Virus record (IMG/VR): IMGVR_UViG_3300032227_000993
Source: a virus
Lineage: Duplodnaviria; Caudoviricetes
Strand: one strand, 5' to 3'
DNA: 64,000 bases
The position numbers were made by a program, and so were the translations under genes. Under the pieces are notes generated by a model. That model saw nothing but the letters and a program-made list of their open reading frames with translations, did no database searches and was not told the DNA's origin. Shown here piece after piece: positions 21,001 to 63,395 of the stretch. Every line of letters begins with the position of its first letter. Position 1 is the stretch's first letter.

Positions 21001-24000
21001 AGTTTTATAACATTGCGCTATACCAACTACGAAGACATGATTGTATTTGATAATACAAGTCAGTACAATGATTTAATTTATGATCCCAGCACCGGTGCTC
21101 GTCAAACACGATTGAGTTTTAATGCCTTTGTTACTACTGAGTGGGATGGTCAATTAAATGCCCAGGGCTTTATTACTAATTTAGACAATGTTAAACAATG
21201 GGAAACATATCAAAAGTACACCAAAGGCGACATTGTTCTATACAAAAATACCTACTGGCAGGCCTTGGACATTGTCCAGCCTTCTGAAGAATTTAACTAC
21301 AATTCGTGGACCAAGAGTGATTATCAATTAATCGACCGAGGATTATTGCCTAACTTGGCCAACAAAGCAGATCAGCTGGCCAACACATATTCTATCTACG
21401 ATATCAATTTAGCCAGTGACAATGATTTATTTGCGTTTGGATTAATTGGTTTCCGTCCACGCCAGTATATGTCAGATTTAAATCTGGACAGCGTGACACA
21501 GGTTCAACTGTACCAGCAATTTTTAGGTACCAAAGGAACAGTTCGTGCCGCAGAAATCTTCAGTCGAGCAGATCTTGGCAAAGAGTCTGGCGAATATCAA
21601 ATTTATGAAAATTGGGCTGTACTGGCTGGCACCTACGGGGCACAAGCCAATAAAAGTTTCTTTGAATTAAATCTAAATGAAGCGGATCTTAGATCTAATC
21701 CAAGTACAGTACAAATCATCAACCCAGGCGAAACAAGCCAAGCCGACCAGGCTATTTTGTTACAAAATATCTGGAGAGAAAGTTACAAAATCAACTCAAC
21801 TGATATTTTGCCTACTGTGTACGAAAGCGGCAACGGCTTCCCATCAGCTGGTTATGTTTCTCTTGATGATGTAGATATCACAGTATTTGATATTAAAAAT
21901 CCTGCAGCCATTGCCGCAGATATTGAAACTATTGGCATTGGAACCTACATCTGGATTGCCAAAATTAATCCCTACAACTGGGGCGTGTACCGCACAAACA
22001 AAGTACCAGGTCAACTGTCAGTAATAAGTGACAATTATGATGGCACAAGTATTGCGTTGTTTACCACGGCTCACGGATTAACCACCGGCGATACCATTGT
22101 TATTAGAGAATTTAATCTCAGTGTCAACGGTGTTTATCGTGTGTTATCTACTCCGTCAATCACCACAATCACCATCGCATTTGCTTTTGTCAATACAAAT
22201 CAAACATCTGTGTCTGGCACAGGAATAGTGTATGAATTACAAAGTGCTCGAGTAAGTCAAGCCAGTGATATTGCTACTTTGCCTTATGTCAATCGTTTGA
22301 TTCCTGGAGAAAAAGTCTGGGTAGATGACAACGGTGATGGCCTGTGGGAAGTGCTTGAAAAACAATCTCCGTTTACTCTCAGCAATACTCTTATCTCAGG
22401 ATTAACAGCCACAGCCAACTATGGACTCAGTGTAGCTCAAACAGTTGACAGCATTGCCGCCTTGGTAGGCGCTCCTGGAGCAGCCAGCGGCACTGGATTG
22501 GTGTACACTTATGTCCGCGATATCAACTTGGATTACATCTTTAATGGTGTAATAAGTTTAACTGCTACTGGCACCGCGGGCTTTGGTAACATTGTCTTTA
22601 TTGGAAATCAAAATTGGGCCGCAGTTGGAGCAAGTTTAAGTAACAGCGGCGCAGGGTATGTTGCTGTGATGTATCGTGTGAGTGGTAGCAGTGATTTTAC
22701 TATTACACAACTATTAGTGGCACCAGATTTGAATTTTTCTAACATTGGCTTTGGTGCTGCTGTTACAATCAGTGATGATGAGCGTTGGATGTACATAAGT
22801 GCCCCGTCAATCAATACTGTCTATGCCTACCAGCGGATTGAGGTACAAAGTCAAACCGCATCATACATTACCAACGGATTGACAAATACATTCAACTACA
22901 GCAATACCATTCAAATTGATCCAACAAATCCAAATCAATTAAGTGTTACACTTGGCCGTAGAACTTGTATTCTTGGCATTGACTACAACATTAACGATTC
23001 AGTTGTAATTTTTGAATATATTCCGGCCGCTGGACAATCATTGATTGTTTCACGCAACTTGACATCACAGCTTGATGCCACTACATATTATGACATTCAC
23101 CAAAATTCAACCAGCGGAATAGGTACTGGAGCAGTATTTGTAATATCTAATATACGTGGTACCTATTCTGTGGCATTAGATAATGGCGGAGTTGCTTATG
23201 CTGTTGGCAATACACTAACAATTAGCTACACACAAATTTCCCCCACAGGATCTGCTGCTAATAATTTAACAATCACCGTGACATCGGTTGATGGCGTTGG
23301 TGGCATTACTGAATTTACCTTTGCTGGTTCAGGAGTAGCAAATACATCTGTGTTTGCTCTTGATACAACATTGTACACTGCAACTACTATTGAAACATTC
23401 TCAATCGTGGTTAATCAAGAAATTCAACGTCCATACATTGATTATACATTCAATGAAACTACAACACAAGTTACTTTTATAACTGTTCCGCCTGCCGGAG
23501 CAACTATTATTGCCAATGCTGGATCATACTGGCAATATCTTGATACTGTCAACAACCCTGCTTCTACTGCTGGCGACAACTATGGCGCAAGTTTATCAAC
23601 ATCAACTGACGGTCGATTATTGGTTGTTGGAGCTCCGCAGGCAGAAGCCGATGGTATTATTGAAGCTGGACAGGTTTACACTTACGATCGTAGTGTAACT
23701 CGTTATCTTGTTACCGACGCTGCTCAACTAACCTATGCTATTCCAACACCTGTAACCCAACCTATTGCAGTAAGTGTAAATGGTACGTTCCTACTATCAA
23801 CCAACCAGGCTGTTGACGGACAATACAGCGTGAGCGGCAGTAATGTGTTGTTTACCAATATTACCCTTAATGTAGGCGACAACATTGAAATTGAAACAAA
23901 TCAATTTACGCTGTTGCAGAGTTTTAATTCAAGCACACCGTCTTACCAAGCAACATATGGAACAGCCGTTGATACGTGTCCACAGAATTGTAGTTTTTAT

Positions 24001-27000
24001 GTTGGCGCTCCGCTTGACAGTACCTATTTGGCGCAGTCAGGATCAGTTGATCATTTGGTCAATCAATCAAGAGTCTACGGAGTAACAACATCAACCATTG
24101 CTAATCCAGCATTGACCGGCGGAGATAATATTCGTATCAACGACATCGCTTTAAGAATTCCAGATGCTCCGTACAATAATGTTGAAGGTTTAGCAGCCGC
24201 TATTAATACAGCAGACATTCCAAATGTAATAGCCACAGCCACTTCAAATCTTGAATTTGTAGGCGACGGCATAACTACCGCCTATGACATCGGAACACTT
24301 TATTCCGCAGCAGCTTCATACACCACGGTAGTTTACATTTCAGATTCGTTGCAGGTTGAGGGAGTAGACTATTCGTATGATCCAGCAACACAAAAAATTT
24401 ATTTTGTAGTTGCTCCAACAGCAGGAACTTTGATTGTTATTGTGTCGGGTCGTATTACAATTTCCGTACAAAATCAAGCGGCAGCCAACCCGTCGGCCAT
24501 GCTCACTGTATTGCCGGGTAATATTGGCACAGCATTTGATGAGCTTGGATTTAATACCTTTGTATTCACACAACAAATTCTCAGCCCAGCACCTACTGTG
24601 TATGGCCTATTTGGATCATCACTTAGCATAGATTCAAGTGCTGTTAATTTAGTAGTTGGTTCACCAAACGGCAATGTTTACGAACCAATGATATTTGACA
24701 ATGGCAACACTTATTTTGATGATCGTAGCACCACATTCTACAATCCAATTCCTAATAGTGGAGTAGCCTACACATACGATTATTTCCCAAGCAGTAAAAA
24801 ATCAATCCTTACTCCGGGACAATTTGCTTTTGGCCAACAAATTTACAATACAAAGGAACAAACTGGCGATTCGTTTGCATTCTCAGTAAATTACACCACA
24901 GGCAGATTATTGGTTGGCGCATTAGGAGATATTAACAATACTGCCTATGGTTATTCTACAGTATTTAGAAACTACACCAACTCACCAGCCTGGGCACAAA
25001 TCCGTGTTCAACAGCCGGTGGTAAATGTTGATCAAATCAATAGTGTGTTTATGTACAATAGATTATTAAACAGCACACAAACCTACTTTGATTTTATTGA
25101 TCCGCTACAAGGCAAGATCCTTGGAGCCGCACGTCGCAACATTGACTACATTGGCGCTGTAGATCCTGCTCAATACAACACAGGCCCTGTACACAATAAC
25201 GGCAATCAGTGGGGAAGCGAACACATTGGAGAAATGTGGTGGGATACCGACACAGTAAGATTTATTGATCCAAACCAGGATGACATAGTGTATGCCAGTC
25301 GCAAATGGGCCTCGTCATTTCCTGGCAGCAGGGTAGACATCTATCAATGGATCAGTAGTGATGTTCCGCCGGCAAGTTACACTGGCGCAGGAACACCCTT
25401 GGGCAATGCAAGCTATACTGTAGGATCAGTATTGGGACAAAATAATGTATTCCAGACAATTTACTACTATTGGGTTCGTGGCCTTACTACCATTGCTGAA
25501 GGCTCTGGCAAAACACTAAGTTCATCTGGTATTTCAAGTTACATTCTTGATCCGCGCAATAGTGGCATACCATACATTGCTGCTCTCAACGCAAATACCA
25601 TAGCACTTTACAATGCCGCTCCGTATTTGTCAGCCGACACTTCTATTATTAGCATAGGTTTTGATCGTGTGCTTACAAGTGCCAATATTCATCAAGAATA
25701 CGAACTTATTGCTGATGGAATTGCTGATTCGTTCTTGAATACAAACTTGCATCGTAAATTCCTTGACAGTTTCTGCGGAGTCAATGCAGCAGGCGCTCTT
25801 GTGCCTGATCCAAACTTGCCCAAAGGCGAGCGGTACGGAGTTCAATTCCTTCCACGCCAGTCAATGTTTGTTGATAGATTTGCAGCCTTACAAAATTATC
25901 TTGGTCGAGCCAATACTATTCTCAAACAATTTCCTATTGTTGAAATGCGATCTTTCAGTTTACTCAATGCGGCTGAGCCTGTTCCGCAGTCAACAGTTAT
26001 TGTTGACGGAACCACAGTAACTGTTTGGAATTTGGAAGTTGCTAACCTTGAAATTTTAGCCTTCCAAAATTTAGCCGCAGTTCCTGTGGGCTACAAATAT
26101 CTTGTGTTGTCAGACAGCAGTCAAGATGGCCGCTGGACAATTTACACAGTTACTGAATCAAGAACATTGATGTTGTCTCGAGTTCAAAGTTATGACACTC
26201 CATTGTATTGGTATTACACTAACTGGTATTTGCCTGGCTACAACAGCAGTACAGCACCAAAAGCCGCAGTTCAGCTATTTGCTGATTTGGCATCATTAAG
26301 CTACACAGTAGTGCCAATAGGCGCCAGTGCTCGCGTCATCAATAACGGCGCTGGAAAATATGAAATTTATCTTCGCACAGGATTAAATCCAACAACAGAT
26401 TGGCAGCGAGTTGGCTTAGAAGACGGAACAATACAATTTAAAGAAGAATTATGGGATTATGCTCTTGGCGGCTTTGGATTTGATTCTGAAGTGTTTGATG
26501 CACAATACTTTGATGAAGAACCAGTTGTAGAAACACGCTACATACTTCGCGCTCTTAACGAAGAAATTTATGTAGACGAATTAGCCATTGAGCGTAATAA
26601 AGCACTCATGTTGATGTTTAATTTTGTGTATACAGAATTTACAAGCCCTGAATGGTTGACTAAAACCAGTTTAGTGGATGTCAATCACAAGATTCGTTCA
26701 TTGTTACCATACCAAACTTATCTACAAGATAATCAAAACTTTGTTCTTCAGTACTTTAACGAGGTCAAACCATATCACGTACAAGTACGCCAGTTCAATT
26801 TAATTTATTCTGGTGACGATACCTACCAAGGTGATGTAACCGATTATGATGTACCAGCCTTTTACAATCGTGATTTGGAAATTCCGCAATTTGTTAGCCC
26901 AATACTAACACCGTATGATTTGTCTCAAGTGTCTACACCCACCAACACTTTCAGCAATACTGAGCCAGACGCACAAATTTGGCTTGAAACTCCGTGGAAT

Positions 27001-29796
27001 GAATGGTTCAATAACTATTTGCTGAGTGTTCAAGGAGCCACAGTAGTCAGCGGCGGTGACGGATACACTATTGCTCCTATTGTTGAAGTAACTGGTAATT
27101 GTGTTGTTCCGGCTGTGATGACAGCAACAATCAATAGTGTTGGTCGTGTGATTGCTATTAATATTGTGTCTCCGGGATCAGGCTATTCATCTACTGCAAC
27201 TATTACAATCTCCGGCGGAAACTTGCCAGCTGATCCAACACCTTGGGCCGCTGGATTAAATGTATCATCATCAGCATACATTATTTCCTTATCAAACAGC
27301 ATATATGAAGTGGCCACCGGTGGTACTTTAGGAAATGTATCTCCAACTGGCACAGTTGATCAAGTCAACGGCAATGTTGCGCTGGTGTACATGGGAACAG
27401 TGGCAGTTGCTACAGCACAAATGGGTAACCCACTGGTGCGCTCAATTAAAACCACAATCAAGTATGACCGTTACCAATACAGTTCAACTATTGTTCCGTG
27501 GGTATCCGGCGACACATACGCTACAGGAACTCAAGTTCGTTATGACGCCAAAGTATGGGAAGCACTCACTACAGTTTCTAACACTATATTTGATCCAGAT
27601 CAGTGGGATTTAGTTAATGCATCCAGCCTCAGCGGCGCTGATCGTACCATGGGTATGTACGAGCCAACTCCTAATCAGCCTGGCTTGAGCTGGCCACTGT
27701 TGGTTGATGGAGTTGATTATCCAGGTGTACAAGTAGCCGGAGTAGCATTTGATTTAGATCCAGGATTTGATCGTGCTCCGTTTGATACCACTCCTTTTGA
27801 CAACAGCTTTACAGAACCAAGCGGTCGTGTTACATTTGACCCTGCTCTTCTTGACACGATCTACGCAAGTAATTACGCAGATACATTCTTAGGAACACGT
27901 CTATCTGATATCAATGTTGACGGTGGCGCATACGTAGATACCTATTCAAGTCACGCACCAGAAGAATTAGTTCCTGGAGCAATGTTTGATACCTTGGACA
28001 TTCGTGTTTACACCACCCCGGGTGCTGACTGGGCAGGAAACGGACATGGATTCCCAGCTGCCTCACAACGTTTTACCTACACAACAACAGCTCCTACTTA
28101 CAATTTTGCTGATATTTTACCCTATCCTGTTGTTATTGCTCTGACTAATCAAACTGCCAAAGCAGGACTAAATGAGGGTACAGATTACACCATTGATTGG
28201 GAAAATTTAACAGTTACAATTATTGACAATGTAGCCAATGGCTCTACTATCAGTATTACTGTTTATGAATTAGGCGGTGGAAATCAATTGTACAAGAACA
28301 TCTACAATGGCGCAGATGTTGGAGATACTATTGTGGTACCACTGCAGTTTGCTTCAATTTACGAATTTGCTATTTTTGTCAACGGCGTACAAACTACTGA
28401 CTTTGTGTTCACAGACAACACCACAGTAACATATGGCACAACATTGATTACATTTGGAACAACCTACACCAACGCTGATTTTATTTCGTTAGTAGCAATT
28501 GGACCCACTACCATTGATGGTGTTACCACAGATTATTCATGGAGTATTCCAGTAACACAATTAATTGAAGTTGATTTGATAGGACAGCTTACATTTGACT
28601 TGGACAATAGTTTAGATTACACAAATTCTGTTAATCCTGTAATTACGGTCAACGGAGTCCGTGCTGTCACTGCCGGCGGCATAGAATATGTAAGTGACGG
28701 AACAACTACGTCTTATCTAGTGGCCCAGCGTTTAGGATTTGATCAAATTGAGGTAACTGATTCAACAGTATTTGTTTATTGTGATAATATTTTACAAACT
28801 GCTGGCTATTTTGTTAACCCATCATCCGCTGGCGCCACTGTTCAATTCACCACAGTTCCTGCAGCTGGTGTTTTAATTTACATCGCTGTAACAACTAATG
28901 TACAAGCTGTAATAGATACTACCACAGCCACAGTATCATTTAATCCTACAGGCGGTTTGATTCCTAGCCTAGGTGATATCATTGCTGTAACTACATTTAA
29001 TGATGTTCGTGAACAGGGCTTGGCAACCAAAGTATTTGTTGGGCCAGTGAGTGACGGTGGAGTTATTTTAGTTGAAGGATACGACACTACATTATTTGAT
29101 GCGGCCACGGTCAATTTCACTCCTGGATCATACAACTATACTGTTGGTGTTGAGTCTTTGGAAAATGCCCTGTATTTAAATCGTCATATTACTGAAACAA
29201 ATCGTATTTTGGTAACATTAAATGGCCAAATTCTAACACCAGACATAAACTACACATTGTACAATGGCCCACTTGCTGATGACCCAGCCTATGGAACAGA
29301 ACTTATTTTAAATTCTGGCATATTGCAAGTAACTGATGTAGTGATGGTTACATTACTTACTGAATCTGTTGTGCCAGAAGCCATGGCATTCCGTATTTTC
29401 CAAGATATGCGTGGCGTACAGTTGACATATCGTATTACTCCATCAACAACTACTACAGTGGCGCAGGCAGTTTCACCTACTGATGACATTATCTATGTGG
29501 TCAATGCTAGTAACCTAAGCCAACCAAATTTTGCTGCTAACTTGTGGGGCGTGGTAACCATTGATGGCGAGCGTATTATGTATCGCGAGCGTGATACTAC
29601 AGCCAATACTATCAGCAGCCTGATCCGTGGCACAGCAGGTACAGGAGCGGATAGTCATGCAGTTGGTGCCAGTGCCTATGACATGGGTCGCGGCAACGCA
29701 TTACCAATGGAATATCAAGACCACATTGTAAGTACTACAATATTAGCTGACGGCACTGAAACAGTATTCGTTGCTCCCAACATAAATTTAGATTGA
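15028..29796 (+). CDS. Giant virion/baseplate wedge protein (4922 aa, gp7 position), multi-domain
   Basis: Uninterrupted 14.8-kb ORF right after gp6. Contains FG-GAP repeats, repeated beta-sandwich modules (V-x-V-x-V-NG...DY...P..G), GSGY-type repeats and [FY]D-x3 acidic-aromatic repeats. Confidence 0.75.
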   Translation: MIAKVRSVDFLPEIFQTPVNKQFLSATLDQLIQEPQFTTTQGYIGQKVGPGVQPADYYVVESTKQRTDYQLEPGVISVNPTDGKISDAITYPGILDALSTQGAYTDNATRLFSSEYYSWDPFVDFDKLVNYSQYYWLPGGPLAVDVSATDIPATDDITVTRENGVYTFSGYAGSNPTITLLRNGSYNFIVAQNDSVAVDFRVQNNGSRYWIIDFENNPTLTLTRGNTYTFNLSVDGFYPFYIKTQPTFGTTNVYNDGVVNNGAAEGLITFTVPQDAPDTLYYVNPAEFNLRGTMNIVDAQPGTGPGFWIQAAPGISGRLPWSPNISSRDVLGVLNNGTDLGTVTFNVPDALAQSFYTSMPYINYPTPGVGKVDLIVNDLLFNQINAISVDQFLKNNPNGIDGITNLNNRTLVFTTQTTDPDSGGWEIESGFDPLVRTTGQQVSKNIGFDVTGQPFDDLPYDTITTVITGVPDPQDGEIGSFDILPPNPTIPNPPAYSGFGGATPITDKEVQFSVWQIQYVNNADGVPFIQLNSILPVSDLTQFSISFGSEYVNTNWYKNSSGFFEQMPLLTATLDTVYYQDGTDPEIFGPINLIDGDVNASINILTDILGQKNYTSPNGVTFTNGLKVTFRGNVIPSSYQNETYYVYGVGSSITLTPVSVFITPEQSTQVISVGYDTTPYDSTGFDQSLNEPLVPNYMTINMASIDQNPWTRSNRWFHIDVIRQAAAYNQTAPLFINAQRARRPILEFRANTQLYNFGTEGIAPVNVIDFTETDALSNINGSTAYAVDGYQFQQDSLVVFAADTDPNVRNQVYQVNFIVVDPSTSTVPIIDLVPTSYSPVQANQNTVCLSGTTLKGVSYYYTGTEWIETQQKTKTNQPPLFDVYDAAGYSFGNTTQYPSTNFTGCKLFSYAEDTNNTVDPVLGIPLAFFSLNNIGDIEFSNNLYTDTFVYTPVSSGVTVDVSSGFVRQYSTRELYIREIGWQTAAIPSTQRQQFQFTYDGNPLQLDILVSSETIVTPIQIFINNEYQTPNTYAVTTNTTSNTTSIRLTGTGYVVGDIIEVLVLSDQTSAQAFYEVPINLENNPFNANSPFFTLGTIRGHYGTICENLIELRGPINGANNSRDLGDIVPYGTQIVQQSAPLTLAGYFLRSNEYNIFASIEYNSREYIKYKNKLLTTVANMDISTTMTVPEILDTALLQINASLTSSSPFYWSDMLPVGTNFTSNSTTITPISTQTFNTIQTYDFTSSNYLGLLVYLNGILLLRNTDYTVSVDAPKLTILVPLSVGDVVTIDEYPTTVGNWCPNTPTKMGLYSKYRPEIFLDETYTSPTLVIRGHDGSITVAFTDIRDEVLLEFEKRIYNNIKVDDNPIPLSTDQVTPNFFPAETTGLLPGFFRPTPYTFTEINTILSQSFLTWVGQNNLDYTQQDYQETDPFTYNYSQSGNRINEQLLLGNWRGIYRYFYDTETPNLTPWEMLGFSEMPAWWELRYGPAPYTSGNLVLWDDLRIGLVADPVAPYILSEYARPSLIMKGVISVAVINGGSGYTSPPVAVISAPPAGRDFIAAQLGTPVIQNGVIVSIPVINSGRGYETPPTISIIPAAGDTTGTGATITATIDTVVSILPVGSEGELLSPLESLIGFYDNLTFKKSWVAGDGGPVQASWWKSSSYPFAIMRMLALTKPAEFFALYADRDLYRYNTELGQFLYNDRYRLDANGVQVYGNGISKASYINWIVDYNRQLGINSTDTLTTALANLDVRLCYRIGGFSDPVYLAVYTERNGPGSTNNSLLIPPESYEILFYKNQPFDQLTYSALIIEQTQNENGVITYSVYGYSNMQPYFNVQVSSPVGLYETLEAGGLAVQVPIQYTQNVAQVPYGYSFTNAAGVCDFILGYGTYLESQGLIFDDRFNGYELNWKQMAKEFLYFAAQGWAPGTMINLNPVATTLKAVKPISIVDTIASLTPENMLLDQYRFVLEARNLVINRENNVFSITSTNGQTISFITLRYTNYEDMIVFDNTSQYNDLIYDPSTGARQTRLSFNAFVTTEWDGQLNAQGFITNLDNVKQWETYQKYTKGDIVLYKNTYWQALDIVQPSEEFNYNSWTKSDYQLIDRGLLPNLANKADQLANTYSIYDINLASDNDLFAFGLIGFRPRQYMSDLNLDSVTQVQLYQQFLGTKGTVRAAEIFSRADLGKESGEYQIYENWAVLAGTYGAQANKSFFELNLNEADLRSNPSTVQIINPGETSQADQAILLQNIWRESYKINSTDILPTVYESGNGFPSAGYVSLDDVDITVFDIKNPAAIAADIETIGIGTYIWIAKINPYNWGVYRTNKVPGQLSVISDNYDGTSIALFTTAHGLTTGDTIVIREFNLSVNGVYRVLSTPSITTITIAFAFVNTNQTSVSGTGIVYELQSARVSQASDIATLPYVNRLIPGEKVWVDDNGDGLWEVLEKQSPFTLSNTLISGLTATANYGLSVAQTVDSIAALVGAPGAASGTGLVYTYVRDINLDYIFNGVISLTATGTAGFGNIVFIGNQNWAAVGASLSNSGAGYVAVMYRVSGSSDFTITQLLVAPDLNFSNIGFGAAVTISDDERWMYISAPSINTVYAYQRIEVQSQTASYITNGLTNTFNYSNTIQIDPTNPNQLSVTLGRRTCILGIDYNINDSVVIFEYIPAAGQSLIVSRNLTSQLDATTYYDIHQNSTSGIGTGAVFVISNIRGTYSVALDNGGVAYAVGNTLTISYTQISPTGSAANNLTITVTSVDGVGGITEFTFAGSGVANTSVFALDTTLYTATTIETFSIVVNQEIQRPYIDYTFNETTTQVTFITVPPAGATIIANAGSYWQYLDTVNNPASTAGDNYGASLSTSTDGRLLVVGAPQAEADGIIEAGQVYTYDRSVTRYLVTDAAQLTYAIPTPVTQPIAVSVNGTFLLSTNQAVDGQYSVSGSNVLFTNITLNVGDNIEIETNQFTLLQSFNSSTPSYQATYGTAVDTCPQNCSFYVGAPLDSTYLAQSGSVDHLVNQSRVYGVTTSTIANPALTGGDNIRINDIALRIPDAPYNNVEGLAAAINTADIPNVIATATSNLEFVGDGITTAYDIGTLYSAAASYTTVVYISDSLQVEGVDYSYDPATQKIYFVVAPTAGTLIVIVSGRITISVQNQAAANPSAMLTVLPGNIGTAFDELGFNTFVFTQQILSPAPTVYGLFGSSLSIDSSAVNLVVGSPNGNVYEPMIFDNGNTYFDDRSTTFYNPIPNSGVAYTYDYFPSSKKSILTPGQFAFGQQIYNTKEQTGDSFAFSVNYTTGRLLVGALGDINNTAYGYSTVFRNYTNSPAWAQIRVQQPVVNVDQINSVFMYNRLLNSTQTYFDFIDPLQGKILGAARRNIDYIGAVDPAQYNTGPVHNNGNQWGSEHIGEMWWDTDTVRFIDPNQDDIVYASRKWASSFPGSRVDIYQWISSDVPPASYTGAGTPLGNASYTVGSVLGQNNVFQTIYYYWVRGLTTIAEGSGKTLSSSGISSYILDPRNSGIPYIAALNANTIALYNAAPYLSADTSIISIGFDRVLTSANIHQEYELIADGIADSFLNTNLHRKFLDSFCGVNAAGALVPDPNLPKGERYGVQFLPRQSMFVDRFAALQNYLGRANTILKQFPIVEMRSFSLLNAAEPVPQSTVIVDGTTVTVWNLEVANLEILAFQNLAAVPVGYKYLVLSDSSQDGRWTIYTVTESRTLMLSRVQSYDTPLYWYYTNWYLPGYNSSTAPKAAVQLFADLASLSYTVVPIGASARVINNGAGKYEIYLRTGLNPTTDWQRVGLEDGTIQFKEELWDYALGGFGFDSEVFDAQYFDEEPVVETRYILRALNEEIYVDELAIERNKALMLMFNFVYTEFTSPEWLTKTSLVDVNHKIRSLLPYQTYLQDNQNFVLQYFNEVKPYHVQVRQFNLIYSGDDTYQGDVTDYDVPAFYNRDLEIPQFVSPILTPYDLSQVSTPTNTFSNTEPDAQIWLETPWNEWFNNYLLSVQGATVVSGGDGYTIAPIVEVTGNCVVPAVMTATINSVGRVIAINIVSPGSGYSSTATITISGGNLPADPTPWAAGLNVSSSAYIISLSNSIYEVATGGTLGNVSPTGTVDQVNGNVALVYMGTVAVATAQMGNPLVRSIKTTIKYDRYQYSSTIVPWVSGDTYATGTQVRYDAKVWEALTTVSNTIFDPDQWDLVNASSLSGADRTMGMYEPTPNQPGLSWPLLVDGVDYPGVQVAGVAFDLDPGFDRAPFDTTPFDNSFTEPSGRVTFDPALLDTIYASNYADTFLGTRLSDINVDGGAYVDTYSSHAPEELVPGAMFDTLDIRVYTTPGADWAGNGHGFPAASQRFTYTTTAPTYNFADILPYPVVIALTNQTAKAGLNEGTDYTIDWENLTVTIIDNVANGSTISITVYELGGGNQLYKNIYNGADVGDTIVVPLQFASIYEFAIFVNGVQTTDFVFTDNTTVTYGTTLITFGTTYTNADFISLVAIGPTTIDGVTTDYSWSIPVTQLIEVDLIGQLTFDLDNSLDYTNSVNPVITVNGVRAVTAGGIEYVSDGTTTSYLVAQRLGFDQIEVTDSTVFVYCDNILQTAGYFVNPSSAGATVQFTTVPAAGVLIYIAVTTNVQAVIDTTTATVSFNPTGGLIPSLGDIIAVTTFNDVREQGLATKVFVGPVSDGGVILVEGYDTTLFDAATVNFTPGSYNYTVGVESLENALYLNRHITETNRILVTLNGQILTPDINYTLYNGPLADDPAYGTELILNSGILQVTDVVMVTLLTESVVPEAMAFRIFQDMRGVQLTYRITPSTTTTVAQAVSPTDDIIYVVNASNLSQPNFAANLWGVVTIDGERIMYRERDTTANTISSLIRGTAGTGADSHAVGASAYDMGRGNALPMEYQDHIVSTTILADGTETVFVAPNINLD
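22410..24970 (+). repeat. Seven FG-GAP-like repeats (integrin-alpha-type beta-propeller) inside the giant ORF
   Basis: YGLSVA..LVGAP, FGNIV..VGAS, FGAAV..ISAP, YGASL..VVGAP, YGTAV..VGAP, FGSSL..VVGSP, FAFSV..LVGAL. Boundaries approximate. Confidence 0.7.
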
Positions 29797-54945: not shown

Positions 54946-55873
54946 AATATTCTTGAAATCCTTCTTCTATGTTTACTTCTGGGTAATAACCAAAATCGTT
55001 TTTTGCTCTAAGTATATTTAACTGACCACGCTGAGGGAAGCTATTATCTCGCGGTTTTACTAGAATAGTGCCGCGGCCTACAATATCAACAGCAAGTTTT
55101 GCGGCATCTAGTAGTGTTCTAGATTGTCCACGGGTAATATTGTATGTGGCATTCTTGGTATCTTCGCTGACAGCAGACAATGCAATGCCCATTGCGGCAT
55201 CGTCAACGTAGGTAAAGTCTAAAGCATCGTCAATACCGTTGACTAAAATATCTTTATCGCGCATGGCCGCTAATAAGAACTTACTGACTACACGATCCTC
55301 TACATCATAAGGACCATACACAGCACTAGGACGAATAATAGTGTAATCTATATTGTGCCTGCGAGCATAATCCTGTACCAACCACTCGCCGGCCAACTTC
55401 ATAATGCCATATTGACCTATGGGCCGACAATCGCTGCCTTCGTCGATGCCGTCAAAGAATTCGTGTTTGCCAAAGTTACCGTAAACCATACTAGAGCTGA
55501 TGTAAACAAATTTTTTAACTTGATGTTTAACACTAAGCTCGAGCAAGTTAAGTAAACCTTCACTCATGACACGACTACCCCACTGAGGATTACTGTTAAC
55601 TACTTTTTGTCTAGGAAAACTGGCCAAGTGTATTACACAGTCTACACCTTCAAAGATGCTGTCATCAAATGGATCTTCGATACTGGCAATACAAATATTG
55701 CGAGTCTTAATGCGACACATACGTTCAAGCATTAAGTAATCTATTTCTTCTTTAGGAATAACACCATATGTAGTACAGTTATCGATGATAGCAACATCGT
55801 GACGGAAACTTTCGAGTACACGAACTACGTTGTGCCCAATAAAGCCTAGTCCTCCTGTAACTAAAAATTTCAT
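54899..55873 (-). CDS. NAD-dependent nucleotide-sugar epimerase/dehydratase (extended SDR)
   Basis: TGGLGFIG Rossmann motif, HLAS, ISSSMVYG, catalytic YGIMK, RPSAVYGP, DFTYVDD. Confidence 0.92.
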   Translation of the reverse strand: MKFLVTGGLGFIGHNVVRVLESFRHDVAIIDNCTTYGVIPKEEIDYLMLERMCRIKTRNICIASIEDPFDDSIFEGVDCVIHLASFPRQKVVNSNPQWGSRVMSEGLLNLLELSVKHQVKKFVYISSSMVYGNFGKHEFFDGIDEGSDCRPIGQYGIMKLAGEWLVQDYARRHNIDYTIIRPSAVYGPYDVEDRVVSKFLLAAMRDKDILVNGIDDALDFTYVDDAAMGIALSAVSEDTKNATYNITRGQSRTLLDAAKLAVDIVGRGTILVKPRDNSFPQRGQLNILRAKNDFGYYPEVNIEEGFQEYYDWLKDSVYRIKKAI

Positions 55874-56091
55874 AATAATATTCCGTGAATGTAAATACCA
55901 GCCATAATTAAATTTAAAATGATTAAACTAGGCTCACGCCATAAAAAACTTAACAGTATCCATAGTGAAGCATTTAGTAGACCAGAAAACTTGTAATATG
56001 GCCCAATGTCATGCGCAGTTAAAACTACATGAGTTAGTGCTACAAATGTTGCCAACCATTTTATGTAAAAGTCTAAAGGTTTATGCCGCAC
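55870..56091 (-). CDS. Small membrane protein
   Basis: 73 aa with hydrophobic segments; overlapping starts and stops with both neighbours. Confidence 0.65.
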   Translation of the reverse strand: MRHKPLDFYIKWLATFVALTHVVLTAHDIGPYYKFSGLLNASLWILLSFLWREPSLIILNLIMAGIYIHGILL

Positions 56092-56326
56092 TATCCCACC
56101 GCAAAAAATATTCTGTGGCAGATTTTTCTTCTACTTCACCATAGACAATAACACGTTGCCCATAGGTGCGAGCATCGGGACGAATAATAAATTGTGGGTC
56201 TAAACAGTTAGCCTTGATCCAACGCCCTTGGTCAGTATCCATAAATTCTGCCAACGGAAATGCGGCGTAAATTTCAGGATCTTCAGGATCGCCAATGCCA
56301 AAGGTGTGAAAAATAATCTTTACCAT
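56081..56326 (-). CDS. Small protein of the FxL[KR]W family
   Basis: 81 aa ending EEKSATEYFLRWDSAA; has its own promoter just upstream. Confidence 0.65.
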   Translation of the reverse strand: MVKIIFHTFGIGDPEDPEIYAAFPLAEFMDTDQGRWIKANCLDPQFIIRPDARTYGQRVIVYGEVEEKSATEYFLRWDSAA

Positions 56327-56335
56327 ACTAGTATC

Positions 56336-56364
56336 ATTGTAGCATAATACAAATTATTTTACAA
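56336..56364 (-). promoter_or_regulatory. Sigma70-type promoter
   Basis: TTGTAA-17 nt-TACAAT with a TGn extension, 9 nt before the ATG at 56326. Confidence 0.5.
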
Positions 56365-57016
56365 TGAATTCGGTAATCATTGGAAAGATTGTGGCCAATG
56401 ATTCAGCACAGGCAATCGCAATGGCACGATGTTCTTTTTGTGTCTCCGGTCCGGATCTTAATTCAATGTAGTGTAACCAAGAACGTAGCGTACCTTGCAT
56501 GTACAATCTACTTACTGTGAGTCCTTCGGGTAATACAGCACGGGCTTGTTCTTTGGCGATGCCTTTTTCTAACGCCCAGCGATAGGATTTCTGTGCCGCG
56601 GCAATAACATAATCTTGCTGTGTTTCCCAATTTAATTGTAGCCCAGCATCATCAGTTTCTATGCTGTTTTGCCGATTCTTAACGTCTTGTAAACGTGCTT
56701 CCTTAAACTCAAATCCCAAGTCAGCTACAGCATAACGCTGACTAAATTCTTGGAATGAAAAGCTACGATGCCGTAAGATTTGTCGAGCAATGTCGCGAGT
56801 AGTTTCAATTTCTAGACAAGCACTAACCATTTCAAGCGGTGACCAATGCTGGTGCTTGATAAGATAACGTATTAGTTTTTCGCTTGTTTCTGTGTTGGTT
56901 TGGTTAGCAGGATTGCTAACACGAGCGCAGTAAGCAACTAGTTCTTGAGCATTTACAATACCCTGGTTGACTAGTTCCTTACTTGGCTCACTGCTACTTA
57001 CTAATGATACTTTCAA
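56354..57016 (-). CDS. thyX: Flavin-dependent thymidylate synthase
   Basis: HWSPLEM, ARQILRHRSFSFQEFSQRY (ThyX signature), ARAVLP, LRSWLHYIELR, QKEHR. Confidence 0.95.
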   Translation of the reverse strand: MKVSLVSSSEPSKELVNQGIVNAQELVAYCARVSNPANQTNTETSEKLIRYLIKHQHWSPLEMVSACLEIETTRDIARQILRHRSFSFQEFSQRYAVADLGFEFKEARLQDVKNRQNSIETDDAGLQLNWETQQDYVIAAAQKSYRWALEKGIAKEQARAVLPEGLTVSRLYMQGTLRSWLHYIELRSGPETQKEHRAIAIACAESLATIFPMITEFIVK

Positions 57017-58545: not shown

Positions 58546-58614
58546 CTATTCAGATGTATCTACTGCGACTATCAGTGCTACCAATACAACAATAACTATT
58601 GCGACGGACATCAT
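58546..58614 (-). CDS. 22-aa single-TM microprotein (not in the ORF track)
   Basis: MMSVAIVIVVLVALIVAVDTSE; ATG overlaps the TAA of the VWA gene (TAATG). Confidence 0.45.
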   Translation of the reverse strand: MMSVAIVIVVLVALIVAVDTSE

Positions 58615-59891
58615 TAGTGACTCTTTTCTTCTTCGTAATAAGCATACTGACCAAATGGTGGAACAATGCTGGTACTGCCGTGAATTACAAACACAGTATC
58701 GCAATAGTTCTCATCGCCCCAAGAACCATATGGATATCCGTCAGTTAAGATAATCAATCGTTTAGGTTCAATCTCTTGTTCTTTAAGATATTCATAGATA
58801 CAATCAAAGTCAGTGCCGCCTCCGCCTTTACATTCGTAGTCAGTAATATTCTCTAAATTTTCTGAATTGTACTGTTGTGGATTATGAACGGCTGTGTCAA
58901 ATGTAGCCAAGTGAATGCGATATGACTCAAACTGTTCCATAATACCAGCTGTTTCACCCAAAAAGTCCTTGAGCATTACACCATCGATAGAACCTGACGC
59001 ATCGATAAGTAATGCGATGTCAATAAGTTCGTCGGGCTTGCGTCCTGGCATAACAGCATCCATATCCCAACCCTTACGACTGCTACGCATCCAGGTAAAA
59101 TCACTCTTAATAGTACTTTCTAATTGCATACGGAGTAACTCACGCCAGTTCATCTTGGGAGCAGTTAAATCTTGAATAATACGCTTGACGCCTGCTGGTA
59201 AATTACCAGCACCATCACTGGCTGCCGCGGCCGCTAGTAATGCTTCTTTGATCTCGTCCTTGATAGCATCTTTTTCGGCTTGTGATAACTTGGGACGACC
59301 GTTACCATCTTCGCCGTCACCGCCGCCCTCACCTGTTTCGTCACCATCCATGTGATCGTCAAGTAACTGCTCAATTAGTTTCTGTACATCAATTTTTTCA
59401 GCATTTTCGTAAAGAATATCGTAAATCTCTTCTGAACTCTTACCATCATACTTAGAATCGTACAAACACGGTACTGTGGTAATCTTTTCACCTACACGAT
59501 GTTTAATCAAGTCAGAGTTAACGCAATAATCTGCGGCACAGTTGTACAATTGAGCGTCTCGATCGCCGCGACGACCAAAGTGATCATACACACAATGTAA
59601 TACTTCGTGACCAAACAAGAATTCAATTTCTTTTGGGCGTAGTTTATCTACAAATCGACTATTGTAGTAGAAGTTACGACCATCTGTGCCTGCGGTAGTA
59701 CACCATTCGTCAGCATTGACCAATTTTAATCGTGTAGCAAGATTACCAAAGAAACTTGCACGGAGTAATAAACCTACACGAGCTGTAATCAGTTTTTCTC
59801 GTACTTCGCGGTCTAACTTAGGATCCATTGGGCCCAGTAATTCTTTGCCTGTAGCGCCTTTAGTATCTGCTGTAGTGCCTTTTGCTGACAT
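58614..59891 (-). CDS. HExxH metallopeptidase-like plus VWA-like (MIDAS) protein, DUF2201 type
   Basis: GHEVLH motif, acidic linker, LIDASGS MIDAS motif, GGGTDF, ILTDG. ATG at 59891 has AGGAG (track start 59960). Confidence 0.85.
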   Translation of the reverse strand: MSAKGTTADTKGATGKELLGPMDPKLDREVREKLITARVGLLLRASFFGNLATRLKLVNADEWCTTAGTDGRNFYYNSRFVDKLRPKEIEFLFGHEVLHCVYDHFGRRGDRDAQLYNCAADYCVNSDLIKHRVGEKITTVPCLYDSKYDGKSSEEIYDILYENAEKIDVQKLIEQLLDDHMDGDETGEGGGDGEDGNGRPKLSQAEKDAIKDEIKEALLAAAAASDGAGNLPAGVKRIIQDLTAPKMNWRELLRMQLESTIKSDFTWMRSSRKGWDMDAVMPGRKPDELIDIALLIDASGSIDGVMLKDFLGETAGIMEQFESYRIHLATFDTAVHNPQQYNSENLENITDYECKGGGGTDFDCIYEYLKEQEIEPKRLIILTDGYPYGSWGDENYCDTVFVIHGSTSIVPPFGQYAYYEEEKSH

Positions 59892-59924
59892 ATTTAACGA
59901 CTCCTGTAGTTTCATTATACTACT

Positions 59925-59953
59925 ATTATAGCAGATGTTGATTTTACTGTCAA
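59925..59953 (-). promoter_or_regulatory. Consensus sigma70 early promoter
   Basis: TTGACA-17 nt-TATAAT with a TGn extension; the -35 box overlaps the TGA of the upstream ORF. Confidence 0.85.
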
Positions 59954-60222
59954 CCACCAAATTTCAGCTTGAAAAAGGTCATTTCCGCGTCGGATTTAAG
60001 GTAGATACGCTTGTTACCGTGCTCGGTGTCCCAAGCCCATAGCTGTGGCGTTTCTGACCATCCCAGTTCCGAACTAGGCCCAAATGTAGTCCAACACCAG
60101 ATCCTTAGTTCGGTCAACAAGCGCCTAGACTCTATGTAATCTCGAGGAGTAGGACTAATAGAATACTTAAACTCTGTATGACCGTTGTGCCTGCGATCTA
60201 ATTTAGTAACAAGGTATTTCAT
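59950..60222 (-). CDS. Small protein, FxL[KR][WYF] family
   Basis: Ends IYLKSDAEMTFFKLKFGG. Confidence 0.7.
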   Translation of the reverse strand: MKYLVTKLDRRHNGHTEFKYSISPTPRDYIESRRLLTELRIWCWTTFGPSSELGWSETPQLWAWDTEHGNKRIYLKSDAEMTFFKLKFGG

Positions 60223-60223
60223 A

Positions 60224-60535
60224 TCAGCCCAAGTATTTTAACACAAAAAAACTCTGCGATGCTTCGTCCCAGAAATCAAGATGTACTTGTTCTTTGTAGT
60301 AAAATCTACCTCGGAGCTCGTCGTGTGCGTCATCGGTGTAGTCCCACGGTACTAGGCCTTTGTGCCGTCTTACTGTGACTCCCAGTTCGCGACGCATTTT
60401 CCATGAAAGCAACATACTATGACCATGCTCCTTGATAATCTTTGAAGAAATCTCTTCCCATTCGTCAGGCTCATGAAAAATAATCAAGTTGCGTTTAATT
60501 TCAATCTTCACGAGGTAATCCTTTGACCGCATCAA
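60224..60535 (-). CDS. Small protein, FxL[KR][WYF] family
   Basis: Ends LDFWDEASQSFFVLKYLG. Confidence 0.7.
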   Translation of the reverse strand: MMRSKDYLVKIEIKRNLIIFHEPDEWEEISSKIIKEHGHSMLLSWKMRRELGVTVRRHKGLVPWDYTDDAHDELRGRFYYKEQVHLDFWDEASQSFFVLKYLG

Positions 60536-60719
60536 TAGCTTGTCTAGCGTATTTACTAATTTTACCGCCTTGATCCATGCGCTCGATATCTTCCAAGGCA
60601 GTCATCATAATTTCTGCTTCTTCGGCCATCTTGTACACACGATTGCGCAGATTGCTAGAATCAATCCACGATCCTATGGCACTGACTAACCTAGCAACAA
60701 GATATGACCAATCAATCAT
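60501..60719 (-). CDS. Small helical hypothetical protein (not of the FxLxW family)
   Basis: 72-aa ORF overlapping both neighbours. Confidence 0.6.
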   Translation of the reverse strand: MIDWSYLVARLVSAIGSWIDSSNLRNRVYKMAEEAEIMMTALEDIERMDQGGKISKYARQAIDAVKGLPRED

Positions 60720-60978
60720 TAGTAAACTTTAATAAAAATATTGTGTACTTTTGTTCATCAACAATCTCATTGGCTAACTGTAGATCGCCATCGGGTGTAA
60801 AAGTCAATTTAAGTCCATACTCTGATTGTAGCCATACATAAAAACTTTCTGTAGTTGTTAACTGATCGTATTCACTTTTGGCTCGTGAAACCTTGACCCA
60901 AGTAGTGCCAGCATCGCCAATGATGGTGTCTAGTCTGGCGGCATTATTGGCGTAGTAGTTTTTACTCATACGGCCCAC
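60712..60978 (-). CDS. Small protein, FxL[KR][WYF] family
   Basis: Ends IVDEQKYTIFLLKFTND. Confidence 0.7.
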   Translation of the reverse strand: MGRMSKNYYANNAARLDTIIGDAGTTWVKVSRAKSEYDQLTTTESFYVWLQSEYGLKLTFTPDGDLQLANEIVDEQKYTIFLLKFTND

Positions 60979-61190
60979 CTTAATCTGTAAAAACTTTCTA
61001 ACGATTCGTTAGTAAATGTAATCTCAACACAGGGCTGGGTATGGGTGCTATCATCCCAACCGTCATACTCGCTGGGCATATATGACCAACGAAAATCTTG
61101 GTCAACTACCAGTCCTTCACTACGAAGTGTGTCTAAATAACTCATAGCGTCGGCAGCGTTTTTGACAGGAACAATTAACACTAGCCCCAC
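60966..61190 (-). CDS. Small protein, FxL[KR][WYF] family
   Basis: Ends ITFTNESLESFYRLRWAV. Confidence 0.7.
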   Translation of the reverse strand: MGLVLIVPVKNAADAMSYLDTLRSEGLVVDQDFRWSYMPSEYDGWDDSTHTQPCVEITFTNESLESFYRLRWAV

Positions 61191-61417
61191 CTCAACATAA
61201 ACCAGGTGTAATCTTCATCGCGATCAAATATGTAATATACCGTATCAAACTTTCCTCGCGGACTAGCAGGATCAACTCTACATCGAAACTCTTTGCGCCA
61301 ACGCTGACCATAATGCCGTGGATTTTCTAAATGTTCAACCGGTAGTGTACGCCTGGCATTCCAATACGCACGATTAAACCGATCATCTAACACATTGACT
61401 CTAATCATGGTCCCCAT
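61181..61417 (-). CDS. Small protein, FxL[KR][WYF] family
   Basis: Ends YIFDRDEDYTWFMLRWG. Confidence 0.7.
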   Translation of the reverse strand: MGTMIRVNVLDDRFNRAYWNARRTLPVEHLENPRHYGQRWRKEFRCRVDPASPRGKFDTVYYIFDRDEDYTWFMLRWG

Positions 61418-61632
61418 CGCAACAAAAACATCATGCGTTCTTGTTCCTTTTCAAAGTTTAGCATCATACCAAACTGATGATGTATGCCACGAGGTAAGTT
61501 GGTTGCCATCCACTCTTGTATTTCATACTCGTTGGCTTGCCAATAATCCTGATCTAAAATGATTAAACTTGGCTGGAACTGACCGTTCTGTACTTCAAAG
61601 CGACGAGTTAAAAAGTTACCAGGCGTTGTCAT
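61405..61632 (-). CDS. Small protein, FxL[KR][WYF] family
   Basis: Ends LNFEKEQERMMFLLRWGP. Confidence 0.7.
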   Translation of the reverse strand: MTTPGNFLTRRFEVQNGQFQPSLIILDQDYWQANEYEIQEWMATNLPRGIHHQFGMMLNFEKEQERMMFLLRWGP

Positions 61633-61903
61633 ATGCTCTTATTAAGTTCTTGGCCTTGAGTTTGACCATGGTAAACTCCTTGGGGCAAACACGGAATCTG
61701 TGCGCTTCCCAGGTAGGTTTAACCAAGTAAACACCATTGGCATTTTCCAGCCAAACCCTAGTGCTATTAGCAACATATTCATCGTGTACCTTAAAATCCA
61801 TCCAGCCACCTTCGGCCGGACTACAGTTAGGCATGACCCACAGTTGCCACTGCTGTTGTTTGTACTTGTTGGTTCTTGTATCTAGTTCGTAGTAGTAGTT
61901 CAT
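61616..61903 (-). CDS. Small hypothetical protein (possible diverged family member)
   Basis: 95 aa; KEFTMVKLKA is only a partial match to the motif. Confidence 0.6.
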   Translation of the reverse strand: MNYYYELDTRTNKYKQQQWQLWVMPNCSPAEGGWMDFKVHDEYVANSTRVWLENANGVYLVKPTWEAHRFRVCPKEFTMVKLKAKNLIRAYDNAW

Positions 61904-62163
61904 GCTAGAGCGGCCTCTGTTCCGTATTTTAACTTAAACCAATTCAATTGTTCATCGTCCTTTAAGTAAATCATGTACTGCTGATAGATGATGTAAAATG
62001 CCCAGTTCTCATTACTTATGGGCTCGTCACGAGAGACATCTGCGCCCGGTCCCCAGGTTACTGTACACCACCGACGCACCGCATGGAACTCCAGCATACG
62101 ATTAACCTGTATGCCGTACTCAAAGTACCTGTTCTCTCGAGTGTTGTGTAGGTAGTATTTCAT
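61900..62163 (-). CDS. Small protein, FxL[KR][WYF] family
   Basis: Ends IYLKDDEQLNWFKLKYGT...; shares WC..T.GP with the 59950 ORF. Confidence 0.7.
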   Translation of the reverse strand: MKYYLHNTRENRYFEYGIQVNRMLEFHAVRRWCTVTWGPGADVSRDEPISNENWAFYIIYQQYMIYLKDDEQLNWFKLKYGTEAALA

Positions 62164-62169
62164 AAAAGG

Positions 62170-62220
62170 TTGGAGGGCGGTGCGAACACAGCCCTGTGTT
62201 TTTTAGACACCACCCCCCAA
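62170..62220 (-). other. Structured RNA element (long hairpin with an inner stem) between MoxR and the microprotein array
   Basis: Outer 13-bp stem UUGGGGGGUGGUG/CACCGCCCUCCAA (two G-U pairs, valid only on the minus strand) enclosing AACACAG/CUGUGUU. Confidence 0.6.
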
Positions 62221-62224
62221 TGAC

Positions 62225-63310
62225 TTAGGCGCTTGCTTGCAAAATGTACTTGCCATACTTCTTATGGAACTCATCAAAGTTCTTGAGTTTAGTAGGCTGG
62301 AACGGTAAGTTGTATGTAGTAAGAGCAATTCTAGCACCCATAACAACCAACTCTGTTTCAAAGTTCTTCATCATGTAAGCAAAGAAGTTGTCGGCCATTT
62401 TATGAAAGTCAGCATCTTTAACTTTATTTTCAATAGCACCTTTGAGTTCATAGCACATAGAGATAACCAAACTGTACATGGCTGATACTTCTTTGACTTC
62501 GAGAGTATCTACTTTACCTGACAATATCTCTTCTGGTTTAGGCATACGTCCTGCTACCTTGCGGTGAGCCATGAATTTAACAGCCAACCCTTCGCCTACA
62601 GTACCAGCAATCAAATTCATTACAGTATCATCATCGCTGTCTTCGTCAGATAAGATTTCTGATACAAAAGACCAAGAGCGTGGAGTAGCAAAGGCACGAC
62701 TAGCCGATTTGGGATCAAAGTCGTACAAGTCCTGCTTGGCAAAACTCAAATAACCCACAACATCTTTATGGATGTTTTTGTTTACTGCCCAGTCTTGCCA
62801 TGACGCAAAATCACATTTCATTTCTTGATGGATAAAGCGATTGGCCAACGGAGTAGGCATACGATATGTAACACCCTTGTCTGACTCGCGATTACCAGCA
62901 GCAACAATTACTACATTTTTTGGCAACTTGTACTTGCCAATTCTGCGATTCAAAATAAGTTGATATGCAGCCGATTGAACAGAAGGAGCTGACGAGTTCA
63001 TCTCATCTAAGAATAATACCACAATAGGATACTGAGCAGAAAACTCTTCGTCCGGCAAATCAATTGGCTCTGCCCAATCCATCTTGCCTAATTCTTTATT
63101 GTAAAACGGAATACCACGAATGTCTGTGGGTTCCATTTGACCTAGTCGTAAGTCAATCATAGCACCGCCAAGTTCGTTGGTAATATCTTCTACCAGTTCT
63201 GACTTACCGATACCAGGAGGGCCCCATAAAAATAATGGACGCTGATGTTTAAATGCTTTTAAAATTGAACGACGGGCTTGAACCGAAGTAATTTGTCTTG
63301 TTTCTGACAT
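62225..63310 (-). CDS. MoxR-like / AAA_5 AAA+ ATPase
   Basis: Walker A GPPGIGKS, Walker B LFLDE, AAGNR, PLANRF, ATPRSW. Confidence 0.9.
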   Translation of the reverse strand: MSETRQITSVQARRSILKAFKHQRPLFLWGPPGIGKSELVEDITNELGGAMIDLRLGQMEPTDIRGIPFYNKELGKMDWAEPIDLPDEEFSAQYPIVVLFLDEMNSSAPSVQSAAYQLILNRRIGKYKLPKNVVIVAAGNRESDKGVTYRMPTPLANRFIHQEMKCDFASWQDWAVNKNIHKDVVGYLSFAKQDLYDFDPKSASRAFATPRSWSFVSEILSDEDSDDDTVMNLIAGTVGEGLAVKFMAHRKVAGRMPKPEEILSGKVDTLEVKEVSAMYSLVISMCYELKGAIENKVKDADFHKMADNFFAYMMKNFETELVVMGARIALTTYNLPFQPTKLKNFDEFHKKYGKYILQASA

Positions 63311-63366: not shown

Positions 63367-63395
63367 ATTTTACTATTAATTGAGTTTATTGTCAA
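63367..63395 (-). promoter_or_regulatory. Sigma70 early promoter for the MoxR operon
   Basis: TTGACA-17 nt-TAAAAT. Confidence 0.75.

Follow-up and report, generated by a model that had tools for sequence, protein, structure and literature searches.

A tandem array of small phage genes with a common C-terminal motif: profile evidence for a large, undescribed family in a variable slot beside MoxR

What are the short genes that lie in tandem between a MoxR-type AAA+ ATPase gene and a VWA-type metallopeptidase-like gene on the virus record IMGVR_UViG_3300032227_000993 (IMG/VR; Duplodnaviria, Caudoviricetes), and does this position say anything about their function? We analysed the whole 64,000-nucleotide stretch, hereafter 'the window', with the array at positions 59950-62163. 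A first-pass annotation had seen here a diversified early-gene family with a common fold or docking helix, possibly adaptors or clients of the MoxR-VWA machine, or a panel of proteins directed against the host or its defences. As judged by profile comparisons, the array is a real, old and diverged set of paralogues from a very large, undescribed phage family, carried in a generic variable slot. We read this family as a set of small binders that vary around one constant docking face, a reading to which we assign a probability of about 0.55; that the C-terminal helical region of MoxR is their common partner is a tentative proposal that stems from one complex prediction.

The array comprises nine open reading frames (ORFs), all on the minus strand and each 72-103 amino acids (aa) long. 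Seven of them carry the end motif: the pattern [FYWILMV][FYWILMV]xL[KR][WYF] falls within the last 14 residues of 7 of the 339 six-frame ORFs of at least 40 aa in the window, and all seven lie inside 59950-62163; allowing the pattern at any position adds just two ORFs. Coordinates, strand and pattern count thus agree with the earlier description of nine small ORFs, seven with the motif. ORFs 61616-61903 and 60501-60719 gave no end motif in this pattern scan. The further copy proposed at 56081-56326, with the terminus EYFLRWDSAA, is a close variant missed by the strict pattern. Neighbouring genes of the array meet in ATGA-type junctions or overlap by 8-17 nt, as translational coupling implies, and 59950 and 61900 are the only clear pair in pairwise comparison of the window ORFs (E 1e-10), so the members are indeed otherwise highly diverged. 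The ORFs are listed below with, for each window group, the hhalign probability and number of aligned columns against an outside family profile (130 domains from an exhaustive search), and, for some, the ratio of non-synonymous to synonymous substitution rates (dN/dS).

61900..62163, minus strand: subfamily 'A' member, 87 aa, ending WFKLKY; 71.7% over 39 columns; 100% to the 59950 profile.
61616..61903, minus strand: small conserved ORF 'D', 95 aa, not a demonstrable member; 3.9% over 12 columns; 8 orthologues; dN/dS 0.14; degenerate MVKLKA followed by a 10-aa tail.
61405..61632, minus strand: canonical member 'Q', 75 aa, ending MFLLRW; 98.9% over 38 columns, E 3e-17.
61181..61417, minus strand: member 'J', 78 aa, ending WFMLRW; 96.8% over 22 columns; E 2.7e-6 in another comparison; true start likely the ATGA overlap at 61408.
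60966..61190, minus strand: member 'H', 74 aa, ending FYRLRW; 90.9% over 22 columns.
60712..60978, minus strand: member 'C', 88 aa, ending IFLLKF; 70.2% over 38 columns; true start likely the ATGA overlap at 60969.
60501..60719, minus strand: small conserved ORF 'K', 72 aa, no motif, non-member; 0.5% over 10 columns; dN/dS 0.27; probably helical.
60224..60535, minus strand: probable member 'B', 103 aa, ending FFVLKY; 38.3% over 30 columns; 83% to the 60966 group.
59950..60222, minus strand: subfamily 'A' member, 90 aa, ending FFKLKF; 76.7% over 39 columns; the copy that was folded and docked.
56081..56326, minus strand: distant probable member, 81 aa, EYFLRW end; 42.8% over 39 columns; kept in 40 related loci; dN/dS 0.39.

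Do these proteins share more than their last six residues? Orthologues and motif-bearing ORFs were taken from 80 related loci collected via MoxR. These loci hold 160 motif-bearing ORFs, 153 of which form one BLAST component, and jackhmmer connects 61405, 61181, 60966, 60224, 59950 and 61900. Against the outside profile all eight motif ORFs (56081 included) reach 38-99% over 22-39 columns, with column-shuffled controls at 0.6% or below. Some 25 residues ahead of the end helix lies a second conserved element, a helix with the pattern x-x-I-x-x-W-C-x-E-N-x-x-G; the 38-39-column alignments of 59950, 61900, 60712, 61405 and 56081 extend into this Trp-containing helix, and those of 61181, 60966 and 60224 cover 22-30 columns only. 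Compared with each other, the orthologue profiles of the window resemble one another over the last 13-23 residues only. The profile links together with the shared order of elements therefore answer the objection that nothing aligns past the last six residues. From the profiles and models we conclude that the seven array ORFs are one family beyond this point, 60224 less securely than the others, and that 61616 and 60501 are non-members by the same profile comparisons; 56081, given its near-variant end and its profile probability, probably belongs to the family as well. Orthologue dN/dS values of 0.13-0.39, which are rough because dS is near saturation, indicate real genes under purifying selection.

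The consensus of the end helix across the 130 outside members is D(79%)-A(56%)-x-x-F(98%)-x-L(98%)-[RK](99%)-W(98%), in an alignment anchored on the motif pattern, which limits the last positions to few residues beforehand. The core of each member would span ~45-50 residues: the Trp/Gly helix, a beta-hairpin ending in h-x-F, an acidic turn and the C-terminal helix D-A-x-x-F-x-L-[KR]-[WYF], with the remainder of each protein apparently varying freely. AlphaFold2 with orthologue alignments predicts the order strand-strand-helix-strand-strand-helix, that is, a small sandwich, for both 59950 (predicted local distance difference test, pLDDT, 91.4) and 61405 (pLDDT 79.0); in either model helix 1 carries the conserved Trp close to its end, and Trp and Gly take equivalent places. 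Transitive profile links, the hhalign values and this common topology support the notion of a diversified family with a probable common fold. Both models draw the same weak neighbours, SUI1/eIF1 and YciH. Foldseek against the PDB gave no match at E 0.001 or better, the best VIA Z was 5.9 (VIA-align wide) and atlas TM values for SUI1/eIF1, YciH and DCoH (pterin-4a-carbinolamine dehydratase) were 0.56-0.59, which is weak and generic. The likeness to these three, the same strand/helix order in a two-layer sandwich, is a common arrangement and no sign of kinship or function.

The family extends far beyond the window. A profile search of 1.84 billion representatives returned 3,017 clusters (50% identity) at E 0.001 or better, and subfamily A alone accounts for 729 clusters at 90% identity. 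Almost all matched proteins are 55-167 aa long and carry the domain at their very end; a few have two domains (P0123, P0143, P0148, P0176 and P0261, 139-167 aa). The members that we looked up are all metagenomic and named 'hypothetical', and the structure search likewise gave good matches to many uncharacterised proteins of uncultured phages. Searches of Pfam, PHROGs, NCBIfam and PDB sequences with the window ORFs, canonical relatives and the family profile yielded nothing above noise; tblastn with four members against 50,697 phage records found no significant match; and no fusion of subfamily A to a longer protein turned up in a search for one, a weak negative. The family appears to be very large, unnamed and confined to phages.

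The window itself has no close relative in the cultured-phage collection. The profile search did detect three diverged members in Pseudomonas phage sp. 30-3, a relative of PA5oct (examples: ...IWCDENVESKW...FGFEDGSEALMFKLQF and ...ITFAFFEESDALMFMLYF). Two adjacent members lie ~0.5 kb downstream of the phage ClpP protease subunit gene in PA5oct (MK797984.1, 180349-182187). This pair beside clpP has 98.6-99.2% DNA identity across ten other cultured PA5oct-group records; in PA5oct it is annotated as EST35_0274 and EST35_0275 and bears no virion mass-spectrometry tag. The PA5oct-group MoxR is 51% identical with the same C-terminus, and is encoded 50-70 kb from the family members; in PA5oct its gene lies near 234.4 kb of MK797984.1. 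Three small ORFs that follow MoxR in PA5oct were considered as members and rejected as outside the family. The family profile found no match in phage G, XaC1 or the 121Q-like phage Sharanji.

We then ask whether the flanking genes are a clue to function. The borders of the slot are as follows.

63367..63395, minus strand: sigma-70-type promoter, TTGACA-17-TAAAAT, 5' of the MoxR gene; 11/12 consensus positions.
62225..63310, minus strand: MoxR-type AAA+ ATPase, 361 aa, with AAA, AAA_3 and AAA_5 matches; the predicted docking surface comprises residues 323-360.
62170..62220, minus strand: G+C-rich hairpin followed by AACCUUUU, terminator-like (-28.7 kcal/mol, z -3.1); upstream border of the slot.
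59925..59953, minus strand: sigma-70 promoter of the VWA gene, a perfect 12/12 match with TG extension; downstream border of the slot.
58614..59915, minus strand: metallopeptidase-like and VWA-like protein (DUF2201_N 1e-36, DUF2201 4e-16, VWA).

Among 72 related loci the gap between MoxR and VWA ranges from -11 to 6,377 bp; some loci have nothing in it, others have family members, a small acidic protein or large ORFs of differing kinds, and unrelated cargo is present in many. Large unrelated ORFs sit in this slot at L060 8165-8917, L064 3160-3966, L078 8167-8760 and L075 8162-8680; two of them contain an SGGIDS motif, which may point to NAD synthetase. Copy number is similarly variable: five near-complete relatives have 2-24 profile matches per genome, and copies range from 2 to ~40 per genome. 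In one of them (G003) ~28 tandem copies lie at 51-57 kb and ~13 at 200-204 kb, with MoxR near 5 kb; in G004 and G005 the arrays are ~25-30 kb and ~125 kb from MoxR, respectively. Subfamily A directly follows MoxR in about half of the loci, and elsewhere it occurs with other members far from MoxR. Given the variable gap and the distant arrays, the position between MoxR and VWA does not amount to a conserved linkage: the flanks of a variable slot happen to be these two genes, and the view that the arrangement bears on function is not supported. Multiple copies in related genomes were found, a conserved linkage to MoxR/VWA was not.

Close relatives arrange the genes of the slot in the same underlying order (A ... 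D C E F K B) and differ in which single genes are present. The window lacks E, F, G and I and carries a second, old copy of A. In contigs from sister samples (runs X3 and X4), which are at least 90% alike, a break or ~214 extra bases fall exactly at 60716-60719, the junction of ORFs 60712 and 60501, where relatives carry genes E and F. Elsewhere, two conserved genes of ~197 and ~237 aa precede the large arrays of two genomes (L081 443-1718 and L083 181-1447); as judged from these sequences, the gene pair marks a second conserved variable slot of the family.

Does the family occur apart from MoxR? A degenerate DNA pattern for the motif retrieved ten contigs independently of MoxR. Seven have this MoxR, and the other three are 13-44% complete. 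All six family-carrying records that are at least 90% complete have MoxR; five of them had been found via MoxR and only one (G006) independently. Since all contigs belong to one clade and phylogeny confounds the comparison, this co-occurrence fits a dependence on MoxR without showing it.

Sigma-70-type promoters on the minus strand lie at 63395-63367, at 63596-63568 (12/12) and at 59953-59925, and no promoter of at least 10/12 and no convincing terminator was found inside 59960-62160. A sequence scan of the region for the T4 late-promoter motif TATAAATA found none. The flanking promoters are those expected for early genes, in keeping with the early character proposed in the first-pass annotation. 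That the array lies downstream of the 63367-63395 promoter requires qualification: the promoter is there, but the hairpin at 62170-62220 separates MoxR from the array, so co-transcription would need read-through. In 56 of the 66 related loci compared, the sequence immediately 3' of MoxR has a folding energy of -20 kcal/mol or better, many of them with a clean terminator and U-run, and in the empty slot of L071 the hairpin and a TTGACA hexamer directly adjoin. The stem sequences of the post-MoxR hairpin differ across the clade (L001-L080). In the array-bearing lineages that we inspected the U-run is interrupted (CCUCCAACCUUUU), and in several short-gap lineages it comprises 6-8 uninterrupted U; transcripts may leak through the terminator into the array, a suggestion from sequence that phylogeny confounds. 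At the downstream border, the -35 TTGACA of the 59953-59925 promoter overlaps the stop codon of ORF 59950 and lies within the VWA ORF as mechanically called (from TTG 59960). The true VWA start is probably ATG 59915 or 59891; the consensus of relatives starts near MSAKG.

To the family's outlying member at 56081-56326 belong different neighbours, a DUF6552 small membrane-like protein (55870-56091) and ThyX (56354-57016). On the plus strand of the window, 15028-29796 is one ORF of 4,922 aa.

Could the constant helix have a binding partner? We ran a single complex prediction of three chains, VWA, MoxR and ORF 59950 as the partner, with our own alignments. The complex scored 0.66, the best of three controls 0.44. 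This passes the mark of the tool, which 58 of 80 solved complexes and 2 of 110 mismatched pairs reach, rates that hold only roughly here because the calibration used neither three chains nor such alignments. Contact agreement between runs was at least 94%, the partner had a pLDDT of at least 82, and two partner-swap controls scored 0.00. The predicted interface brings residues 45-48 and 78-90 of ORF 59950 against residues 323-360 of MoxR, its C-terminal helices. Contacts of the small protein include D78, A79, T82, F83, K85, L86 and K87; F84 and F88 are not among the confident ones. On the MoxR side V323, L330, P336, P339, F345, F348, H349, G353 and I356 are invariant in 27 relatives. VWA contributes residues 51-52 only, and we draw no claim about it. 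From the missing contacts we infer that Phe84 and the aromatic Phe88 may be buried in the core of the small protein itself; Leu and Lys/Arg, conserved to the same extent, would lie on an accessible face and mark a shared binding surface. The model suggests binding between 59950 and MoxR without showing it. Of the earlier docking-helix and adaptor idea, the predictions supply a shared topology in two members and a tentative contact between the motif helix and the MoxR C-terminus.

Putting these observations together, we propose that the block is cargo of a hypervariable slot bounded by the terminator-like hairpin that ends MoxR and the early promoter of VWA. Its members would be small binders or adaptors, expressed early, in which the docking face is constant and the body varies, and their last codons would double as the Shine-Dalgarno-like site and start of the next gene. 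That the constant face meets the conserved helical C-terminus of the MoxR encoded by the same phage is the most speculative step, for which we see somewhat less than an even chance. The full extension of the idea, in which interchangeable adaptors plug a constant helix into the MoxR C-terminal domain and use their variable bodies to select different, probably host, proteins, we consider distinctly improbable on the present models. If it were true, the MoxR/VWA-metallopeptidase pair would work as a remodelling or degradation machine programmed by adaptors, with as many as ~40 specificities per phage.

Several points weigh against this reading. On the family side, cutting the last ~11 residues abolishes profile similarity between the window paralogues, except for 59950/61900; the membership of 60224, 60712 and 56081 rests on probabilities of 38-70%; and the fold order comes from two modelled members, compared by their sequence of strands and helices. 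On the docking side, the complex run was set up differently from the tool's calibration, and the margin over the best control is 0.22 where 0.20 is required. That control, at 0.44, is no clean negative, because VWA was replaced and MoxR and the partner were both kept. The docking concerns one member, and most subfamily-A orthologues have AH or SH in place of [KR][WYF]. Grooves open in the monomeric AAA+ model may be covered in the hexamer, and the accessible face could serve self-association instead. Finally, large arrays lie 25 to ~200 kb from MoxR in near-complete relatives, and the PA5oct relatives keep the MoxR C-terminus yet have only three distant copies.

Which alternatives account for the same observations? 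The one that survives best, though we rate it as unlikely, has the family act independently of MoxR, as a panel of small early proteins for host takeover or anti-defence. The helix face would self-associate in DCoH-like fashion or bind a host protein, and the MoxR contact would be an artefact that arises when the model pairs an amphipathic helix with a hydrophobic groove left exposed in monomeric AAA+. This alternative draws on the arrays of 13-28 copies far from MoxR, on the slot being a generic insertion site, on a content that differs between close relatives and co-occurring strains as in arms-race genes, on sigma-70-type flanking promoters without a T4 late-promoter motif in the region, and on DCoH being among the nearest named folds. 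An artefact sits poorly with the partner swaps, which scored 0.00 against 0.66 for the real partner, obtained three times with the same contacts; and no member matches an anti-defence or other known family, though none exists to match.

The motif could also be kept mainly for closing the fold and for providing the ribosome-binding site and start of the next gene, with paralogues that share no partner and each do something unrelated or next to nothing. The codons do show such a component. The motif Arg is encoded by AGG in 47% of cases, the remaining Arg positions of these ORFs in 10% (Fisher p 1e-16), and ATGA overlaps follow directly after the motif; TTG AGG TGG GCA TGA, encoding L-R-W-[AG]-stop, therefore supplies a Shine-Dalgarno-like GAGGTGG and an ATGA start to the downstream gene. 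Against this stand the unbiased codons of the motif Lys (AAG 33% vs 35%), the synonymous variation of Leu, Lys and Arg codons among the window copies, the purifying selection on whole proteins, and the equal conservation of the motif in array-ending or solitary members such as the 56081 group. Because the Lys codons are unbiased and the motif persists in members that no coupled gene follows, selection acts on the protein as well, and we regard translation and fold closure alone as quite improbable. A DNA repeat or promoter as the cause of the motif was ruled out, since codons vary among the copies and TATAAATA is missing from the region. Lastly, the idea that unrelated small proteins each gained a similar C-terminal tag by recombination at gene junctions, which the loss of paralogue similarity without the last ~11 residues would fit, is highly improbable in view of the 38-39-column alignments that include the Trp helix (59950, 61900, 60712, 61405 and 56081) and of the same predicted topology in two distant members with Trp and Gly equivalently placed.

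How does the proposed slot of small binders compare with known phage systems? T4-like phages have hyperplastic regions bounded by composite terminator/early-promoter motifs, the PeSLs (Arbiol et al. 2010, PMC2839356; Comeau et al. 2014, PMC4122927). The present locus is alike in that a variable block of small genes lies between conserved genes, with a stem-loop on one side and an early promoter on the other, that gain and loss occur at gene boundaries, and that hairpin and TTGACA adjoin in the empty slot of L071. It differs in having no promoter or stem-loop between individual ORFs, which form one translationally coupled run, and in that paralogues of one family, not unrelated ORFans, make up most of the block. 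In the jumbo phages G and 121Q more than 30 similar small genes stand in tandem (Hua et al. 2017, PMC5646251), and phage G has a ~35-copy zinc-ribbon expansion (Iyer et al. 2021, PMC7824862). These share with our arrays the lineage-specific expansion of one small protein into long tandem runs; the protein family is different, and the copies here are old and highly diverged, unlike the 'very similar' ones of G and 121Q.

For group 2.2 jumbo phages a MoxR AAA+/VWA-metallopeptidase pair has been described, with a proposed role in virion assembly and no small partner family (Iyer et al. 2021, PMC7824862). The flanks of our array, AAA_3/AAA_5 and DUF2201_N plus DUF2201, are that pair. They depart from that account in having sigma-70-type promoters and in the one model that docks a small protein on the C-terminus of the ATPase. 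Other AAA+ machines are served by adaptor proteins such as ClpS, SspB and MecA. If the docking model is right, the family would be analogous to these in combining a constant ATPase-binding element with a variable cargo-binding body that steers an AAA+ machine, with no relation in sequence or fold. To our knowledge, no such adaptors have been reported for MoxR beyond its VWA partner.

At least 3,000 sequence clusters, with up to ~40 genes per genome of abundant freshwater giant phages, are without a name, an annotation or a solved relative, and working out one member would annotate thousands of genes. The question is amenable to bench work because PA5oct relatives carry three members together with a homologous MoxR. 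Should the helix dock on MoxR, this would be, as far as we know, the first phage AAA+ chaperone served by a diversified adaptor family, and the poorly understood MoxR/VWA-metallopeptidase pair of jumbo phages would gain a testable role.

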